13,310 bases of DNA from a virus (Duplodnaviria > Heunggongvirae > Uroviricota > Caudoviricetes), in IMG/VR virus record IMGVR_UViG_2537561622_000007; one strand, 5' to 3'. A program made the translations under genes and the position numbers. Below are positions 1,826 to 13,310 of the stretch, piece by piece. Position 1 is the stretch's first letter. Each line of letters starts with the position of its first letter. The notes beneath the pieces were generated by a model. It worked only from the letters and a program-made list of their open reading frames with translations. It did no database searches and was not told the origin of the DNA.

Positions 1826-2128
1826 ATGAGCAGAAAAACCCAACGTTACTCTAAAGAGTTCAAAGCCGAAGCTGTCAGAACGGTTCTTGAAAATCAACTT
1901 TCGATCAGTGAAGGCGCTTCCCGATTATCCCTTCCTGAAGGCACTTTAGGACAATGGGTTACCGCCGCCAGAAAAGGGCTCGGTACTCCTGGTTCCCGCA
2001 CGGTGGCTGAACTGGAATCTGAAATTCTGCAACTGCGTAAGGCGTTAAATGAAGCTCGCCTTGAGCGAGATATATTAAAAAAAGCAACAGCGTATTTTGC
2101 ACAGGAGTCGCTGAAAAATACGCGTTAA
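1826..2128 (+). CDS. IS600 OrfA (helix-turn-helix / leucine-zipper transposase subunit)
   Basis: MSRKTQRYSKEFKAEAVRTVLENQ... with AGGAG upstream; IS3-family OrfA architecture. Confidence 0.85.
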   Translation: MSRKTQRYSKEFKAEAVRTVLENQLSISEGASRLSLPEGTLGQWVTAARKGLGTPGSRTVAELESEILQLRKALNEARLERDILKKATAYFAQESLKNTR

Positions 2129-2163
2129 TCGAACAATGGCGACAACAATTTCCCATTGAAGCG

Positions 2164-2982
2164 ATGTGTCAGGTATTTGGTGTATCCAGGAGCGGTTATT
2201 ACAACTGGGTACAGCATGAACCCTCAGACAGAAAACAAAGTGATGAGCGGCTAAAACCGGAGATTAAGGTGGCACATATCCGCACTCGCGAAACATATGG
2301 AACCCGGCGGCTCCAGACGGAGCTGGCAGAGAATGGCATCATCGTTGGTCGTGACCGACTGGCACGTCTTCGTAAGGAGCTGAGGCTACGCTGTAAGCAG
2401 AAACGCAAGTTCAGAGCGACTACGAACCCGAACCACAATCTGCCAGTTGCGCCAAATCTGCTGAACCAGACGTTCGCTCCTACAGCACCAAATCAGGTCT
2501 GGGTGGCGGACCTGACGTATGTTGCCACACAGGAGGGATGGTTGTACCTCGCTGGCATCAAAGATGTTTATACGTGTGAAATTGTCGGCTACGCCATGGG
2601 AGAGCGCATGACAAAAGAGCTGACAGGTAAAGCCCTGTTTATGGCGCTCAGGAGCCAGCGCCCACCTGCCGGGCTAATCCACCACTCTGATCGAGGTTCA
2701 CAGTACTGCGCATACGATTACCGGGTCATACAGGAGCAGTCTGGTCTGAAAACATCAATGTCGCGTAAAGGTAACTGTTACGACAACGCTCCGATGGAAA
2801 GCTTCTGGGGAACGCTGAAAAATGAGAGCCTGAGCCACTATCGTTTTAATAACCGGGATGAAGCCATCTCAGTAATACGGGAATACATTGAGATTTTCTA
2901 CAATCGTCAGCGTCGTCACTCTCGTCTGGGGAATATCTCCCCGGCAGCCTTCAGGGAAAAATATCATCAGATGGCTGCTTAA
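2164..2982 (+). CDS. IS600 OrfB (DDE transposase catalytic domain)
   Basis: 272-aa ORF with IS3-family OrfB motifs (HSDRGSQY, KGNCYDNAPMESFWG). Probably expressed as an OrfAB fusion by -1 frameshift, so the true start lies upstream of 2164. Confidence 0.85.
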   Translation: MCQVFGVSRSGYYNWVQHEPSDRKQSDERLKPEIKVAHIRTRETYGTRRLQTELAENGIIVGRDRLARLRKELRLRCKQKRKFRATTNPNHNLPVAPNLLNQTFAPTAPNQVWVADLTYVATQEGWLYLAGIKDVYTCEIVGYAMGERMTKELTGKALFMALRSQRPPAGLIHHSDRGSQYCAYDYRVIQEQSGLKTSMSRKGNCYDNAPMESFWGTLKNESLSHYRFNNRDEAISVIREYIEIFYNRQRRHSRLGNISPAAFREKYHQMAA

Positions 2983-3631
2983 AAAAAGAACAAATGGTAG
3001 TGTCCGCTATTGCCAGTACACCTCACAGATTCCTGTTATTACCACCGAACTTTTGGCGCAGCTTTACGGCACTGAGCCGGTGCGTATTCGCCAGAATCAT
3101 CATGAGAACAAAGTACGCTTCGTTGAAGGGAAACACTTTTTCAAAGTTGTTGGTAATGACCTTAAAGAATTGCGGGTCGCTTTAAACTACTCACAAAATC
3201 CAGTTTCACCCAAAGCCCGCTCCCTCATCCTCTGGACAGAACGAGGCGCAGCACGCCACGGCAAAATGCTCGAAACCGATCAGGCGTGGGATGTGTTCGA
3301 AAAACTGGAAGACTGCTATTTCAGTCAAAGGGATCCGTCAACGCCAGTTTCATGCCAGAAAAGTTACGACACGCGAGTTCTCTGTTATCAGAGAGGCGGT
3401 GTCACTGTTTCCACAATTCAGTTACGGGATGATGATATTGTTATTTCCCTTGAGTCATGGCTGGAACTGGCGAGAGCCAATGGTTGGTTTGTTGTTCGCA
3501 GAGATAAACTGGTGGAAAGGTTGATGCAGCTTTAAAAAAGTTCTTGCATTTTTGCACATAAACTGCTTCAATTACGGTAAGCTTCGCAAAGCTGTATCGC
3601 GAGGCGAATAGCAGACATGGACACTTGAAAG

Positions 3632-3743: not shown

Positions 3744-3820
3744 GGCCCTTTAGCTCAGTTGGTCAGAGCGAGCGACTCATAATCGCCAGGTCGCTGGTTC
3801 AAGTCCAGCAAGGGCCACCA
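3744..3820 (+). tRNA. tRNA, anticodon CAU; ileX/ileZ-like (Ile2, lysidine-type) rather than Met
   Basis: Manual cloverleaf fold: 7-bp acceptor GGCCCTT/AAGGGCC, anticodon loop CTCATAA, T-arm GCTGG-TTCAAGT-CCAGC, 3' CCA encoded. Near-identical over most of its length to E. coli ileX as recalled. Confidence 0.8.
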
Positions 3821-3821
3821 A

Positions 3822-3898
3822 CCACCACTAGCTCATCCGGATAGAGCATCAACCTTCTAAGTTGACGGTGCGAGGTTCGAGTCCTCGGTGGTGGGCCA
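3822..3898 (+). tRNA. tRNA-Arg, anticodon UCU
   Basis: Acceptor CCACCAC/GTGGTGG, anticodon stem TCAAC/GTTGA, loop CTTCTAA, T-loop TTCGAGT, CCA encoded. Starts 1 nt after the previous tRNA. Confidence 0.75.
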
Positions 3899-3900
3899 GC

Positions 3901-3976
<76 letters not shown>

Positions 3977-3979
3977 TAT

Positions 3980-4054
<75 letters not shown>

Positions 4055-4168
4055 TGACCTTTCTTAAAGTACTCCAACCTACTGAATCCTAAGGGATACG
4101 GCTTTAAGCCTCCTTGCAGAGTTACTTACTGTAACCCACTGTGTAACCCTCTCAGGGCATGCAGACAT

Positions 4169-5773
4169 ATGATTCAGCTATCCAGTAGTCACAAACTTCC
4201 AGCAGTCTACTATCTCTACCAGCGTAACGGCGTCTACTACTTCCGTCTTAGGGTCAGACAATCAAACAATGATAGAATGACCTCAATATCATTACGGACC
4301 AAGGATAGACGCACCGCTATGGCTTACTCAAGGCACATAAAGGCAGCACTCAAGGCAATACACGCAGACAGACCCAACGCTACCTATGAGGAAATGAGGG
4401 AACACCTTAAGGACATCGCTGAGTGTGAACTGTCTATGGGCCGTTCAGATCTCTTTGAGCCTGACATGAGGGATATCTACCGGGACCAATACGGAGAACT
4501 TGGTGAGAGCCTTACCGATGCTCTGGCTAGTGAGCCGCTAAGCATTGACCAGCATCGTTACATCAATGAGGCCCTGAAGGTGCTAAAAGCCTGTATGAGG
4601 CGTATCGAAGCGGGAGACAGTCAGCTTCTGATAGATTACGTCGATCTTTTTAATGATATTGATAGGCAAGATAACCAAGCAGACTCTGTGTCCCTATCTG
4701 TTAATGCTCCAGAAGTAAAACCAGAAGTTACGCCTAGCATTACCATAGCGAGCCTCTTTGAGCAATACGAAGCGGAGAACTATCAGAACTGGAAGCCTGC
4801 AACCTTAAGGGAAAACAAGGCGTCACACGCTGCGTTAATCGAAATATTCGACCATCTGGGTCTCAATGCAGACGCTAACAGGGCTGACATGCTTAGGGTC
4901 CGTGATGTGCTCCAGCAGTTACCTAGGAACCGTAAGCAGCGCTTCAAGGATGTCCCACTTGCTGACCTGTTGAGCCGTGAAGATAAGACAGATTGTCTGG
5001 ATGTCGTTACCATCAACAACAAGTATCTTATTAAGATGGCTGCTGTCTTTAGGTGGGCTGTGCGCAATGACTTGATTAAAAAGAACATGACTGAGGGTCT
5101 GGAGCTTAAAGTCCCTCAGCGTAAAGCCTCAGGGGCCCGTAACGCCTTCTCTACGGAGCAGGTGGGGCAACTACTGGTCGCAGCTAAGGCATACTCTCAG
5201 AAGACCTCTGGTAAGCCGTATCATTATTATGTTACCGCCTTGGCTGCTATCACTGGGGCGAGACTCAATGAAATAGCCCAACTACAGGTCAAAGACGTCA
5301 GGACCACTGAGGCGGGAACCGTTTATATTCATATCAATGAAGACGATAGTAGTCTACCCGGTAAGAGCATCAAGAACGCTCATAGTGACCGCTGTGTGCC
5401 TCTGGTCGATGGGGCCTATGGTTTTATATTGGCTGACTTTATGGCGCTTGTAGAGACCCGTAGAGGCGCTGACGGTGATGACGCTATGGTGTTCGATGGT
5501 CTGCGTCTCATGAAGAACGGTTACGGTGAGCAGGTGAGTAAATGGTTTAATCGGACGTTGTTGCCTAAAGTCCTCGTAGACCGTAGCGGCTTAGCGTTTC
5601 ACTCGTTTAGACATACAGTTGCGGCCCAGTTAAAACAACATGGGGTCGAGTTGGCGTATGCACAGGCGATCATGGGGCATAGTTCAGGGTCTATTACGTA
5701 CGACCGTTATGCTAAAGAGGTCGAGGTTGATAGGCTGGTCAATGTGATGGCTGATGTTTATAAGGAGACCTAG
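4169..5773 (+). CDS. Tyrosine recombinase / integrase (534 aa)
   Basis: C-terminal catalytic motifs visible: box I Arg in ALAAITGARLNEIAQL, box II HSFRHT, and the nucleophile region GHSSGSITYDRY. Unusually long N-terminal region (~300 aa). Starts 114 bp after tRNA-Gly, same orientation. Confidence 0.85.
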   Translation: MIQLSSSHKLPAVYYLYQRNGVYYFRLRVRQSNNDRMTSISLRTKDRRTAMAYSRHIKAALKAIHADRPNATYEEMREHLKDIAECELSMGRSDLFEPDMRDIYRDQYGELGESLTDALASEPLSIDQHRYINEALKVLKACMRRIEAGDSQLLIDYVDLFNDIDRQDNQADSVSLSVNAPEVKPEVTPSITIASLFEQYEAENYQNWKPATLRENKASHAALIEIFDHLGLNADANRADMLRVRDVLQQLPRNRKQRFKDVPLADLLSREDKTDCLDVVTINNKYLIKMAAVFRWAVRNDLIKKNMTEGLELKVPQRKASGARNAFSTEQVGQLLVAAKAYSQKTSGKPYHYYVTALAAITGARLNEIAQLQVKDVRTTEAGTVYIHINEDDSSLPGKSIKNAHSDRCVPLVDGAYGFILADFMALVETRRGADGDDAMVFDGLRLMKNGYGEQVSKWFNRTLLPKVLVDRSGLAFHSFRHTVAAQLKQHGVELAYAQAIMGHSSGSITYDRYAKEVEVDRLVNVMADVYKET

Positions 5774-5861
5774 AGGAGACCATAGTCTAGGATGACACTT
5801 ACTACAGACCTGTGTGGTCATGTTTTTGACTCATAGTTTTCTCTACTTGTCAAGGGATAAT

Positions 5862-5884
5862 TAATACGACTCACTATAGGGAGA
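5862..5884 (+). promoter_or_regulatory. T7 RNA polymerase promoter, consensus (copy 1); +1 G at 5879
   Basis: TAATACGACTCACTATAGGGAGA, 23/23 match to the T7 class III consensus (-17 to +6). Confidence 0.8.
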
Positions 5885-5982
5885 AGGGACACAAAAAGTT
5901 TTCTCTTCTAGGATGACACTTACTACAGACCTGTGCGGTCATGTTTTTGACTCATAGTTTTCTCTGCTTGTCAAGGGGTAAT

Positions 5983-6005
5983 TAATGCGACTCACTATAG
6001 GGAGA
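5983..6005 (+). promoter_or_regulatory. T7 RNA polymerase promoter (copy 2, one mismatch); +1 G at 6000
   Basis: TAATGCGACTCACTATAGGGAGA, 22/23 (A to G at -13). Confidence 0.7.
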
Positions 6006-6102
6006 AGGGACACAAAAAGTTTTCTCTTCTAGGATGACACTTACTACAGACCTGTGTGGTCATGTTTTTGACTCATGGTTTTCTCTACTTGTCAAGGATA
6101 AT

Positions 6103-6125
6103 TAATACGACTCACTATAGGGAGA
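6103..6125 (+). promoter_or_regulatory. T7 RNA polymerase promoter, consensus (copy 3); +1 G at 6120
   Basis: TAATACGACTCACTATAGGGAGA, 23/23 match. Confidence 0.8.
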
Positions 6126-6319
6126 AGGGACACAAAAAGTTTTCTCTTCTAGGACAACTAACCGTAACTTATCGCATCCTTTCAGGGGCGGGATGACCAA
6201 TTACAGACACCAAGCGTTCTACTTAAAGTGAATGCTTCCTGTGTGCTCTGGGTCAGTCGATAAGTGAATAGCAATAAGACACAATCATCTTAATTATGGT
6301 CTCTAGTCCCTACAGGGGC

Positions 6320-6463
6320 TTAACTTAAAGTTAACTTAAAGACACAATTAAAGATTAACTTATAGTATTACTTAAAGTTAACTTAAAGACACAATTAGAG
6401 ATTAACTTTAAGTATTAAATAAAAGATTTAATTAAAGACCAATTAAAGATTAACTCTAAGGGA
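6320..6463. repeat. AT-rich iteron-like direct repeats (~47-bp period, 2 good copies plus 1 degenerate) full of TTAAAG motifs
   Basis: Core TTAACTTAAAGACACAATTA[A/G]AGATTAACTT..AGTATTA at 6331-6370 and 6378-6417; degenerate third copy ~6424-6463. No ORF of 60 aa or more on either strand between 5774 and 6530. Confidence 0.6.
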
Positions 6464-6530
6464 ATACCTTAAGGGGTGATGATATTTATAATAATCAATC
6501 ACCAAACCTATAGGTCTTCTCTTGAAGTGG

Positions 6531-7729
<1,199 letters not shown>

Positions 7730-7787
7730 ATCACCTCTGTTCAGGTGGCCAAATTCAGTGTGCCACTTCACAGATAAGGATTGAGTA

Positions 7788-11127: not shown

Positions 11128-12858
11128 ATGGCTAATTACCGTGATTTGTTAGAGCAGGCTGGCGCACGTTACGGTGTGCCAGAAGGGTTGATGACTGCAC
11201 TGGGTGCCAAGGAGTCTTCTTACAACCCTGCCGCAGTAAGCTCCGCCGGGGCTGTAGGATTGACTCAGGTCATGCCTGGGACATGGCGTGATATGGGTTA
11301 TACCGATGAGCAAATGCAAAACCCCGAATATCAGGCTGACGCTGGCGCGCGCTATCTGGCAAAGATGTACCAGCAGTTTGGTAACTGGCGTGACGCTCTT
11401 CAGGCTTATCACGACGGTCCCGGCAACGTTATGAAGGCAAAGCGTGGTGAATATACGCCAGGACCTGAAGGCCGCGGTTACGTTGATGATCGCTTTGCTC
11501 AATGGGCTGGTGACCCGGTGACAGACTCAACAGTCGAACAGCGCGCCACCTCTGCAAAGGTACATCCTCAGCAAGACCCTAACAACCCGTTTGCACAACT
11601 GGAAGTACAGTCATCCGAACAAGTATCGGCATCAGGTGTGCAGTCAGACCCAAATAATCCATTTGCTCAGATTGAGCAGCAGGCAGCCAGTCAGCAGCCA
11701 CCTCAACCCGTAAGTTCTGTCGCACCGAAACCTGTTCAGCAACAAACAGTTAATCAGGCCAATAATGCACCAACACGGGAAGAACCATCATTGATGCAAC
11801 AAGCTGGCGATTGGCTCACTGGTGGTCAAAGTGCAGGGCAAATTGCAGAACAGGCTGGTCGTGGTCTGGTAAACATACCATTTGACGTATTGCAGGGTGG
11901 CGCAAGTCTGATTAATGCAATCAGTCAGGGGCTTGGGGGGCCAAAAGTATTGGATGATGTTTATCGTCCAGTAGACAGACCGACAGACCCCTACGCGCAA
12001 GCTGGAGAGTCAATAGGCGGTTATCTTGTTCCTGGAGCAGGTGTAGCTGGAAACATGGTCATTGGTTCTCTCGCTGACGCGGCGAATCAACGGGGTGATT
12101 TTGCCGAAAATGCCGCTATTAATGCCGGACTTAGCATTGCTACGCATGGCCTGATAAATGGCGTTACCCGTGGTGTTCGTGGTGCATCAAATATAATTAG
12201 TGGCAATAAAACATCTGCACAGAGAGCGACCACTGCGCCAACAGAAACATCACCATTCTCCGGTGATGCCGCTGCAGCAACAAATCCTGCGGTTCATGCC
12301 GCAGAGGCAAGAGTAGCACAAGGTGTACCAATGACGCCTGCGACGAAGAACCCAGAGGAAGTCGTTCGCACAGTAGCAGCACAAAAAAGGCCAAATCTCG
12401 CTTCATCGCTTGATGAACTAGATATCAATCCTCAGGCTGAAGTTCTGGAGTCTGCTGAAAGGCTTAATGTTGATTCATTACTCCCTTCACACTTTTCCGG
12501 GAACGAGCAATACAAGGCAGTTGAGCAAGCAATCAAGTCCCGTGCGGGTTCTGCTCTACAGGTGCAGGAAAATGAAGCAATCAGGCAGCTAGCACAGGGC
12601 GCGGGTGAGATAATTGATCGCGTTTCCGGTGCAAAAGATGCTCTTGGTATGAGCGACAAGTTTATTGATACGGTCAATGGAAGAATGTCTGCGCTGATGA
12701 AACGAAGCGACCAGCTTTATCGCAATGTTGAAAAGGCGATGCCTGCAGGTGCAAAAATTGATGCGCCATCAACAAGGTCAATGCTCAAACAGGTGGCAGA
12801 AGATCTTGGCGGGATGAAAAACCTTGACCCTATTGAAAAGAGAGTTGAGGTAGCCTGA
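11128..12858 (+). pseudogene. Ejection/internal virion protein (gp16-position) with N-terminal lytic-transglycosylase motif; 3' end truncated by IS600
   Basis: N-terminus carries an SLT-like signature ([30 protein letters not shown]). The ORF runs into the IS600 inverted repeat at 12846 and stops at TGA 12856-12858, which is inside the IS, so the native C-terminus is missing. Confidence 0.55.
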
Positions 12859-12929: not shown

Positions 12930-13310
12930 TGAACCGCCCCGGGAATCCTGGAGACTAAACTTCCTGAGAAAGAGGTAAACAGGATGACTAAAAATACTCG
13001 TTTTTCCCCCGAAGTCCGTCAACGGGCAGTCCGTATGGTTCTGGAAAGTCAGGGCGAATATGACTCACAATGGGCGACAATTTGTTCCATTGCCCCAAAG
13101 ATTGGCTGTACGCCGGAGACTCTGCGTGTCTGGGGTCGCCAGCATGAGCGGGATACCGGGGGCGGTGATGGAGGGCTCACCACCGCTGAACGTCAGCGTC
13201 TGAAAGAGCTGGAGCGTGAAAATCGTGAACTGCGCCGCAGTAACGATATCCTTCGCCAGGCTTCCGCTTATTTTGCGAAGGCGGAGTTCGACCGCCTCTG
13301 GAAAAAATGA
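12930..13310 (+). mobile_element. IS629-like element (IS3 family), left end only; runs off the window
   Basis: Left end TGAACCGCCCCGGGAATCCTGGAGACTAAACTTCCTGAGAAAGAGGTAAACAGG, then OrfA, matching recalled IS629/IS1203. Confidence 0.8.
12984..13310 (+). CDS. IS629 OrfA (108 aa)
   Basis: [50 protein letters not shown]...; complete, stop at 13308-13310. Confidence 0.8.

Follow-up and report, generated by a model that had tools for sequence, protein, structure and literature searches.

The window analysed here is a stretch of 13,310 nucleotides of caudovirus DNA (IMG/VR record IMGVR_UViG_2537561622_000007) in which three promoters of the phage T7 type lie within 264 bp. T7 is the model virulent phage of the textbooks, and the expression system in widest use is derived from it. 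We found that this promoter array is part of a copy of a 'T7 island', an element that integrates at tRNA-Gly, and that this copy has been cut by the insertion sequence IS911. Intact islands in E. coli and Klebsiella carry sequences that resemble both the replication origins and the genome ends of T7-group phages. We consider it probable, with real room for doubt, that intact T7 islands are helper-dependent satellites of T7-group phages that operate through cis signals alone, which would make them natural T7 phagemids. The class of T7 islands is already known and appears never to have been experimentally tested. As for the window itself, its striking promoters belong to a described class of element and the copy is a remnant damaged by an insertion sequence (IS). 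The family is still interesting, as the evidence from the cis signals makes a satellite of the T7 group directly testable.

A truncated T7 island

The T7 class III consensus promoter, the 23-mer TAATACGACTCACTATAGGGAGA, occurs twice without mismatches and once with a single mismatch (A to G at promoter position -13), all on the + strand (Table 1). In 200 shuffles of the window there were no matches at three or fewer mismatches. Tandem Repeats Finder (TRF) resolves the array into 3.1 copies with a period of 121 bp and 95% matches. The initiating sequence GGGAGAAGGGACACAAAAAG is common to all promoter copies in the window and is invariant across the islands. An earlier note on this DNA had described two perfect promoters and one with a single mismatch in three head-to-tail repeats of ~121 bp, and our searches returned the same promoters at the same coordinates and the same repeat period. 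The note had also claimed that the window lacks a T7-type polymerase gene. This agrees with our open reading frame (ORF) and domain scans of the window, which contained no gene for a phage-type RNA polymerase; the longest ORFs encode a transglycosylase/ejection protein (576 aa), an integrase (534 aa), and a P22-type injectosome protein (443 aa).

The three-copy array and its junctions, which the note had proposed to confirm with long reads, recur with 99.4% identity in L010 and L011, two contigs that were assembled independently and that also have the same junction between IS911 and the island. Since these contigs reproduce both the array and its flanks, we conclude that the array is real and not an assembly artefact. 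The number of promoter units varies naturally, given that a sister locus (L012) has one unit and the E. coli relatives have one or two.

The integrase gene ends 13 bp before the array on the same strand, and it has 81-94% DNA identity with the integrases of islands in E. coli and Klebsiella. Of the final 23 bases of the tRNA-Gly gene, 20 agree with the direct repeat of intact glyU islands, and the 60 bases that follow the tRNA gene are the conserved left end of the islands, as in E. coli FT130. On the other side, IS911 begins at 6523, straight after the origin-like block described below, and the cargo genes are absent. Neither a second direct repeat (attR) nor the left-end junction motif is present in the window. 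We attribute the missing right repeat to truncation by IS911 rather than to a different kind of element. The island is defective because IS911 cut off its right part, and this copy is very probably non-functional as a mobile element. Having no cargo, left-end signal, or attR, it would therefore be unable to complete the satellite cycle proposed below, and would at most be transcribed, and perhaps replicated in place, during T7 infection. The attachment site of this copy is a prophage-borne tRNA-Gly(UCC) gene rather than the chromosomal glyU (CCC), with 3/23 differences in the core.

T7 islands in other genomes

The block downstream of the promoters was found in 91/5426 complete E. coli genomes (1.7%), where it is always chromosomal and never annotated, and on 24 metagenome contigs (gut metagenomes). 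The islands of E. coli FT130 (4276 bp), 14EC001 (4203 bp), E110019 (4264 bp), and 21AR0133 (7342 bp, including an IS5) are integrated at the chromosomal glyU, with 23-bp direct repeats of the 3' end of the tRNA. Both direct repeats, 23 bp each, are present in L001, L003-L005, L009, and L013-L015, and the intact islands range from 4203 to 6435 bp if 21AR0133 with its IS5 is set aside. Their order is constant: integrase, promoters, conserved block, and then one to four variable genes. The islands of E. coli 22F46, 2011C-4251, and GF31 and of K. pneumoniae ATCC 13883 have a second architecture, in which the integrase is separated from the promoters by an extra gene of 210 aa. Over 7.1 kb, the Klebsiella island is 94% identical to that of E. 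coli 22F46.

The first cargo gene downstream of the promoters encodes a DNA-binding protein of the KilA-N or Rha/Ant type, and the others encode DUF6971, small membrane, and hypothetical or unknown proteins. In the sister locus L012, the first 60 codons of a cargo gene, starting ~360 nt after the conserved block, are followed by an IS interruption. No T7-like structural, polymerase, or replication genes occur in any island examined, and Pfam and PHROG scans of the cargo of intact islands, together with the record annotation, found no AlpA or primase. When the promoter-driven cargo was compared with PADLOC, the only match was a marginal one of KilA-N-type proteins to PD-T4-2_B (E 4e-5 and 1e-3).

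Klebsiella-type islands have K11-type and T7-type promoters side by side, and the other E. coli islands have T7 variants; this mixed specificity suggests a response to several helper polymerases. In the K. pneumoniae island and its 94%-identical E. coli relative (L009 7038-7614; L013 5794-6382), the promoters comprise the K11-type AATTAGGGCACACTATAGGGAGA, the T7 consensus, and a AATTAGGTAGCACTATAGGGAGA variant. We also noted a promoter-like site, CAATACGACTTACTAATAGGAGA, with five mismatches to T7, just upstream of the KilA-N cargo gene (L001 13058-13080, L004 11558, L005 11625), where it is preceded by CAATACGAAT repeats. FT130 has ~14 copies of the 13-bp unit CCATAGGCGATGA before its promoters (L001 12085-12245), and repeats of the TCTCTAGGG type follow the origin-like block in other islands (L003 about 11560-11700; L012 4030-4100). 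These short tandem repeats flanking the conserved block are reminiscent of the repeats beside the T7 terminal repeat.

Resemblance to T7-group replication origins

A segment that runs from the last promoter unit to CACCAAACCTATAGG (about 6060-6516 in the window) is nearly invariant in five islands. This non-coding block of ~450 bp, which comprises a promoter unit, a leader of ~200 nt, and an AT-rich block closed by an inverted repeat, is conserved while the integrases of the islands are 81-94% identical and the cargo differs. When the non-coding region was compared by plain BLAST with 50,697 phage records, only the promoters matched. The likenesses to origins, and those to genome ends in the next section, surfaced only by sliding local alignment and exact-word comparison against the whole T7, T3, and K11 genomes.

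For the origin scan, the segment after the promoters was slid along the whole T7 genome on both strands with local alignment and 20 block-shuffles; the same scan was then applied to T3 and K11, and the Klebsiella island was used as a second query. In T7 the primary origin after phi1.1B scores highest (26), ahead of the secondary origin that follows phiOL (23) and of the short-repeat region by the left terminal repeat (21.5); the 20 block-shuffles reached no more than 19. The best matches in the other two phages are T3 phiOL, the annotated T3 rep_origin, and K11 phiOR, phiOL, and phi1.05. On the same strand, a phage promoter lies only a few bases before the start of the best origin matches, and the Klebsiella island is identical to the T7 primary origin (5930-6000) at 53/71 positions. 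Over T7, T3, and K11, origin matches score 20.5-26 and block-shuffle maxima 16.5-18.5; the maxima are exceeded in five of the six island-phage pairs, and in the sixth the origin still ranks first. Because the top matches in all three phages are the stretches that follow origin promoters, we regard the AT-rich block, judging by its sequence, as related to the AT-rich element that adjoins the promoters in T7-group origins. At T7 origins, a transcript made by the phage polymerase primes the phage DNA polymerase. The window has this architecture, promoters and then an AT-rich region on the same strand, with a 200-nt spacer between them.

The leader that forms this spacer has no similarity to the T7, T3, or K11 genomes. 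A transcript of the promoter unit would begin with a hairpin, as T7 late transcripts do, and the leader is possibly a structured RNA with this 5' hairpin and a long-range helix formed by ACTTATCG and CGATAAGT. These are the arms of a 9-bp inverted repeat (window 6167-6175 with 6255-6264; alignment columns 13-21 and 104-113) that has one compensatory change, T-A to C-G, in Klebsiella-type islands. The repeat could be an RNA helix or, alternatively, a pair of half-sites for protein binding. The folding z-scores of the leader RNA are -1.9 for the E. coli type and -2.5 for the Klebsiella type, with similar topology. In a leader hairpin found by hand, changes within clades keep and break pairs about equally often, so that support for a structured RNA is modest. 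Rfam has no known RNA family in 5700-6600, and neither T7 primase sites nor sigma-70 promoters nor terminators were enriched or present above chance.

Resemblance to T7-group genome ends

The class II pause signal of T7 RNA polymerase, ATCTGTT, has exactly one + strand match in each island, at the same site within the integrase gene. In the window this site lies within a 20-nt sequence, CTCTGTGTCCCTATCTGTTA, that is exactly identical to T7 149-168, where the last bases of the terminal repeat are followed by the pause site. The same mimic of a concatemer junction matches T3 223-239 over 17 nt and K11 170-188 over 19 nt, with the label 'concatemeric junction' on 180-188 in the K11 record. It is the longest exact match to each phage outside of the promoters, the next being 15 nt or shorter among the matches listed, and it is the top window genome-wide in T7, T3, and K11. 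The mimic encodes part of a hypervariable linker of the integrase (SVSLSV). Using an anchor chosen independently of the motif, we found ATCTGTT to be kept in 27/28 loci despite the hypervariable flanks.

In the intact islands, a relative of the left-end junction of the phages lies ~260 bp before attR. The FT130 sequence, TTTAAAATTTCCCACAAAAATCTCAGCGTCTA followed by TCTAATAGTAATAACCTTGCAACATTCCCCCATA, corresponds to TTTAAAATATACCATAAAAATCTGAGTGACTA followed by TCTCACAGTGTACGGACCTAAAGTTCCCCCATA in T7, and the two are identical at 52/69 positions (T7 39743-39810). For the Klebsiella island and T3 37944-37988, 39/45 positions are identical. The left-end junction is the top genome-wide window in T7 and T3 for 4/4 islands tested; in K11 the same holds for the islands of Klebsiella and 14EC001, FT130 scores equally well at an unrelated window, and 21AR0133 gives no signal. 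The exact 8-mers of the T7 and T3 left termini (TCTCACAG and TCTCATAG) are absent from the islands, with the exception of a single TCTCATAG in the integrase gene of L015, where the surroundings are not those of a terminus. The homology at the left end is real, though diverged.

On a circle or a concatemer of the island, the two junction signals face each other across attP and enclose 913-925 bp, a pseudo-terminal repeat of ~0.92 kb that overlaps the 5' part of the integrase gene. The order and strand of the signals are those of phage concatemers: phiOR, AT-rich region, left boundary, terminal repeat, right boundary with the pause site, and phiOL. As the pseudo-terminal repeat spans attP, the signals would be functional only after excision.

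As a curiosity, we noted that integer multiples of the island length plus the pseudo-terminal repeat come to 38.8-39.5 kb in five islands (L001, L004, L005, L009, and L013), as 9 x about 4.2-4.3 kb or 6 x 6.4 kb, which is near the 38.2-41.2 kb of T7-group genomes. L015 fails to fit, and the five represent only about two independent lineages.

A proposed satellite cycle

We infer the transcription, replication, excision, packaging, and transfer of the islands from the presence, conservation, order, and strand of the signals and their similarity to phage sequences. In the cycle we propose, an island would be silent until an infecting phage makes its single-subunit RNA polymerase, with the promoter array acting as the sensor. 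The phage polymerase would then fire the array, and the leader, the AT-rich origin-like block, and the downstream cargo would be transcribed. The transcript would prime the phage replisome as at T7 origins, and the excised circle would be amplified into concatemers. In these, the left-end junction before attR and the right-end junction in the integrase gene would delimit the pseudo-terminal repeat. The polymerase would pause at ATCTGTT, the phage terminase would cut, and the concatemers would be packaged into phage heads. In a new cell, the terminal repeats would recombine to form a circle, which the integrase would insert at tRNA-Gly.

Satellites are expected to lack virion structural genes of their own and to have signals that a helper can recognise. 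All of the islands examined lack such genes, and by sequence they have such signals, of which the window has only the origin-like block and the junction mimic. It is an even question whether T7 islands are also the most minimal phage satellites known, in which the integrase would be the sole conserved protein, induction, replication, and packaging would be achieved by mimicry in cis, and the mixture of T7 and K11 promoters would allow several helpers across genera.

Several observations weigh against a satellite. T7 degrades host DNA quickly, so excision of the island would have to be fast, and no excisionase was identified. The signals are also imperfect copies of those in the phages: the terminal bases of the left-end mimic are TCTAATAG or TGTAATAG instead of the phage TCTCACAG, the pseudo-terminal repeat is 4-6x longer than phage terminal repeats (160-231 bp), and the 200-nt leader parts the promoter from the AT-rich block, which are adjacent in phages. 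With 1.7% of complete genomes, the islands are uncommon in E. coli. Island DNA occurs in only three IMG/VR contigs, none of which resembles DNA recovered from particles: L010 and L011 are ~99.4% identical to the window's own prophage-embedded locus, and L012 is the one-promoter sister locus. RAZR, a defence protein encoded by some of the islands and triggered by the T7/T3 portal (see below), would seem opposed to the same phages as helpers. Finally, we found no experimental follow-up of T7 islands in the searchable literature.

If the islands are satellites, it would mean that a satellite needs no genes for induction, replication, or packaging, just sequence mimicry and an integrase. Strictly lytic T7-group phages could then move chromosomal DNA among E. 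coli, Shigella, and Klebsiella, the anti-T7 immune gene RAZR/PD-T7-4 would be placed on a mobile element that responds to T7, and the islands would offer a natural template for the design of T7 phagemids.

Alternatives: defence modules, relics, and contaminants

The extra gene in the second architecture is PD-T7-4/RAZR, a DUF4145/HEPN RNase (PADLOC 4e-99, full length). PD-T7-4 came to light in a selection against T7, where it was observed to 'often overlap an integrase gene'. As RAZR, it was later described as an abortive-infection HEPN RNase; its activators are the T3, T7, and SECphi18 portal proteins and Gp77 of SECphi27. Natural T7 promoters beside the gene are not mentioned in either the PD-T7-4 or the RAZR paper. 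As the gene lies between the integrase and the array, an experimentally proven anti-T7/T3 gene therefore sits on an island with T7 promoters.

This raises the alternative that the islands are defence or abortive-infection modules that are not transferred by phages, in which the promoters would sense a T7-like polymerase and switch on toxic or interfering cargo, such as the KilA-N, Rha/Ant, and small membrane proteins, and the origin and junction sequences would be decoys for the replisome and the terminase. The cargo is directly downstream of the promoters, its first gene always encodes a DNA-binding protein of the phage-regulator type, a subset of the islands carries the anti-T7/T3 RNase, and known satellites often double as defence elements. 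However, RAZR is upstream of the promoters and is reported to be active from its native promoter, and thus it is not an effector driven by the array. Apart from the marginal PD-T4-2_B match, the promoter-driven cargo tested belongs to no known defence family, and it is the integrase and the cis block that are conserved and the cargo that is interchangeable. Having both terminal-repeat boundaries, precise and colinear across attP, is more than a decoy needs, and a defence module would leave unexplained how a 4-kb element without transfer genes is found in both Klebsiella and E. coli. On balance we regard a purely defensive island as unlikely, although a defence role is compatible with a satellite role and both may coexist.

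The earlier note had offered two possibilities, the relic of a temperate T7-like phage and an integrative element with a satellite or defence role. The second of these is favoured by the integrase, the tRNA-Gly site, the direct repeats, the signal mimics, and the presence of PD-T7-4/RAZR in some islands. For the first, the integrase, promoters, origin, and genome ends would be the inert remains of a prophage that lost everything else by deletion. All of the cis signals are homologous to T7-group signals and adjoin an integrase, descent of the family from a T7-like genome is plausible, and the window copy is a decayed fragment. Yet no island has a T7-like structural, polymerase, or replication gene, and the intact islands have a tight size range, clean direct repeats, and integrase ORFs annotated as intact. 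Different strains and genera share the non-coding block almost without change, and the junction motif is retained within a hypervariable coding linker. Because these features point to selection and not decay, we consider an inert relic quite improbable.

The 23-mer TAATACGACTCACTATAGGGAGA is a standard laboratory promoter and three unrelated assemblies in our GTDB scan hold vector-borne copies of it, but those copies are in a pcDNA-type polylinker, while the array of the window is flanked by a native integrase and tRNA gene, is reproduced together with the IS911 junction by independent contigs, and has a context found in 91 complete E. coli chromosomes, Klebsiella, and 24 metagenome contigs, so a cloning vector, synthetic contaminant, or assembly artefact is hardly credible. 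We excluded a vector or synthetic origin on the grounds that the initiating and flanking sequences are island-specific and found in natural chromosomes, in keeping with the remark in the earlier note that the initiating sequence is unlike the pET and pBluescript leaders. Among 100,044 species-representative genomes, the other exact T7 23-mers are all in a pcDNA-type polylinker on small contigs. These vector-type copies (L006 2373-2395, L007 483-505, and L008 2323-2345; Pseudoalteromonas caenipelagi, Pseudomonas schmalbachii, and Proteiniclasticum aestuarii) have an identical pcDNA-type promoter and polylinker and are probably laboratory vector contamination.

Features and surroundings of the remnant

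Table 1. Features of the T7 island remnant and its immediate neighbours in the window, and the position of PD-T7-4/RAZR in other islands.
Feature	Position	Strand	Basis and remarks
T7 island remnant	4055..6522	+	Left end, integrase, promoter array, and origin-like block; colinear with intact L001 and L003-L005
Prophage-borne tRNA-Gly(UCC)	3980..4054	+	ARAGORN; 3' end 4032-4054, TTCGATTCCCGCTGCCCGCTCCA, is the island attL
Tyrosine integrase, 534 aa, apparently intact	4169..5773	+	Pfam Phage_integrase 2e-17 and DUF6538; PHROG 1 integrase 2e-44
Concatemer junction mimic in the integrase ORF	4684..4703	+	CTCTGTGTCCCT joined to ATCTGTTA, together CTCTGTGTCCCTATCTGTTA; resembles right end of phage terminal repeat plus pause signal
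Tandem array of 121-bp units, 3.1 copies	5786..6154	+	Each unit has one T7 promoter and a 5' leader hairpin; TRF and alignment to one- and two-copy relatives
T7 class III consensus promoter, copy 1	5862..5884	+	23/23
T7 promoter, copy 2	5983..6005	+	22/23, A to G at -13
T7 class III consensus promoter, copy 3	6103..6125	+	23/23; predicted start of transcription at 6120
Conserved leader, ~200 nt	6120..6319	+	Predicted T7 RNA polymerase transcript; nearly invariant though integrases and cargo differ
AT-rich block of CTTAAAG-type repeats	6320..6460	+	Candidate T7-type replication origin element; TRF and best genome-wide phage matches
Inverted repeat GGTGAT...ATCACC	6475..6503	.	Closes the origin-like block; read from sequence; kept in E. 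coli and Klebsiella islands
IS911	6523..7778	-	100% matches to IS911 annotated in phages Sf6 and SfII; transposase domains; outside the island proper
PD-T7-4/RAZR, between integrase and promoter array	L013 5153-5785; L009 6397-7029; L014 5229-5858; L015 5226-5867		

To the left of the array are, in order, genes of the lambdoid nin region (DUF1367, YbcO, and DUF1133), an element of the IS3 family, a truncated antirepressor gene (ORF6N), and a tRNA cluster. What is left of the antirepressor gene is its 3' part (3026-3535), cut by an IS3-family element, and the tRNA cluster (3744-4054), which belongs to the lambdoid prophage, is made up of Met(CAT)-Arg(TCT)-Thr(TGT)-Gly(TCC). To the right of IS911 are tail needle and ejection protein genes of a P22/Sf101-type prophage. 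The region is a mosaic of lambdoid and P22/Sf101-type fragments, and both the prophage and the island have been disrupted by insertion sequences of the IS3 family, at least three in number with IS911 among them (1826-3025, 6523-7778, and 12984-13310).

Comparison with known systems

Chen and Schneider reportedly named the 'T7 islands' in 2006 by computer analysis. The islands are said to be 4-13 kb long, with two or three tandem T7-like promoters, a tyrosine integrase upstream, no polymerase gene, end repeats of 17-24 bases, and a few non-structural phage-type genes downstream, and to occur in the genomes of enteropathogens; dependence on T7-like phages was reportedly suggested as well. The window has the promoters of this class (three within 264 bp, with no polymerase ORF) and the tyrosine integrase upstream on the same strand. 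Of the two end repeats it has only the left one (4032-4054), and IS911 stands in place of the two to five downstream non-structural genes. The copy differs from the class by this IS911 cut and by its prophage-borne tRNA-Gly(UCC) site instead of the chromosomal glyU. Taken together, the window and its relatives agree with the description at each point that was compared. The link to RAZR is later than the 2006 description.

The islands resemble the T7 primary origin (phi1.1A/phi1.1B and its AT-rich region), and the secondary origins phiOL and phiOR in having tandem promoters and then, on the same strand, an AT-rich stretch of the CTTAAAG type. They differ from T7 origins in the ~200-nt leader between the two and in a longer, internally repeated AT-rich block. 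The T7 promoters of cloning vectors are found in a polylinker and leader context, whereas the initiating and flanking sequences in the window are those of the islands.

P4-like satellites, PICIs, and PLEs are also integrase-bearing islands that are mobilised by helpers and often carry anti-phage systems. They are larger than T7 islands, at 7-18 kb, and encode their own regulators and replication proteins, as well as proteins for packaging or for redirecting capsids. We know of none among them that uses a promoter for a phage single-subunit RNA polymerase as its switch. A 2023 survey of satellite families makes no mention of T7-like helpers or T7 islands (PMC10085698). In the literature searched, a single paper uses the term 'T7 island(s)' and none links T7-like phages with phage satellites.

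The PICMIs of Vibrionaceae are very small satellites of virulent phages that have no capsid-remodelling genes, are packaged as concatemers, and can carry defence genes; they integrate next to fis and have three core proteins for excision and replication, with AlpA as the key regulator of activation (PMC10803314). From their sequence, T7 islands would share the very small size, the virulent helper, the lack of capsid-remodelling genes, the concatemers, and the possible defence genes. In contrast, T7 islands are found in tRNA-Gly, have the integrase as their sole conserved protein and no AlpA, and have no sequence relationship to PICMIs.

The cis signals also have counterparts in laboratory constructs. 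T7 phagemids of 3.5-9.7 kb with a T7 origin, pac site, and terminal repeat are replicated, packaged, and transduced by T7 (PMC13236587). The cis set of laboratory T7 phagemids (Chung & Hinkle 1990, J Mol Biol 216:911), namely a promoter-type origin, a packaging signal or concatemer junction, and a terminal repeat, is the set that we recognise in the islands. Compared to these constructs, the islands are natural, have an integrase and an attachment site in place of a plasmid origin, and carry a repeat of ~0.92 kb across attP and signals that are diverged copies rather than the phage's own sequence.

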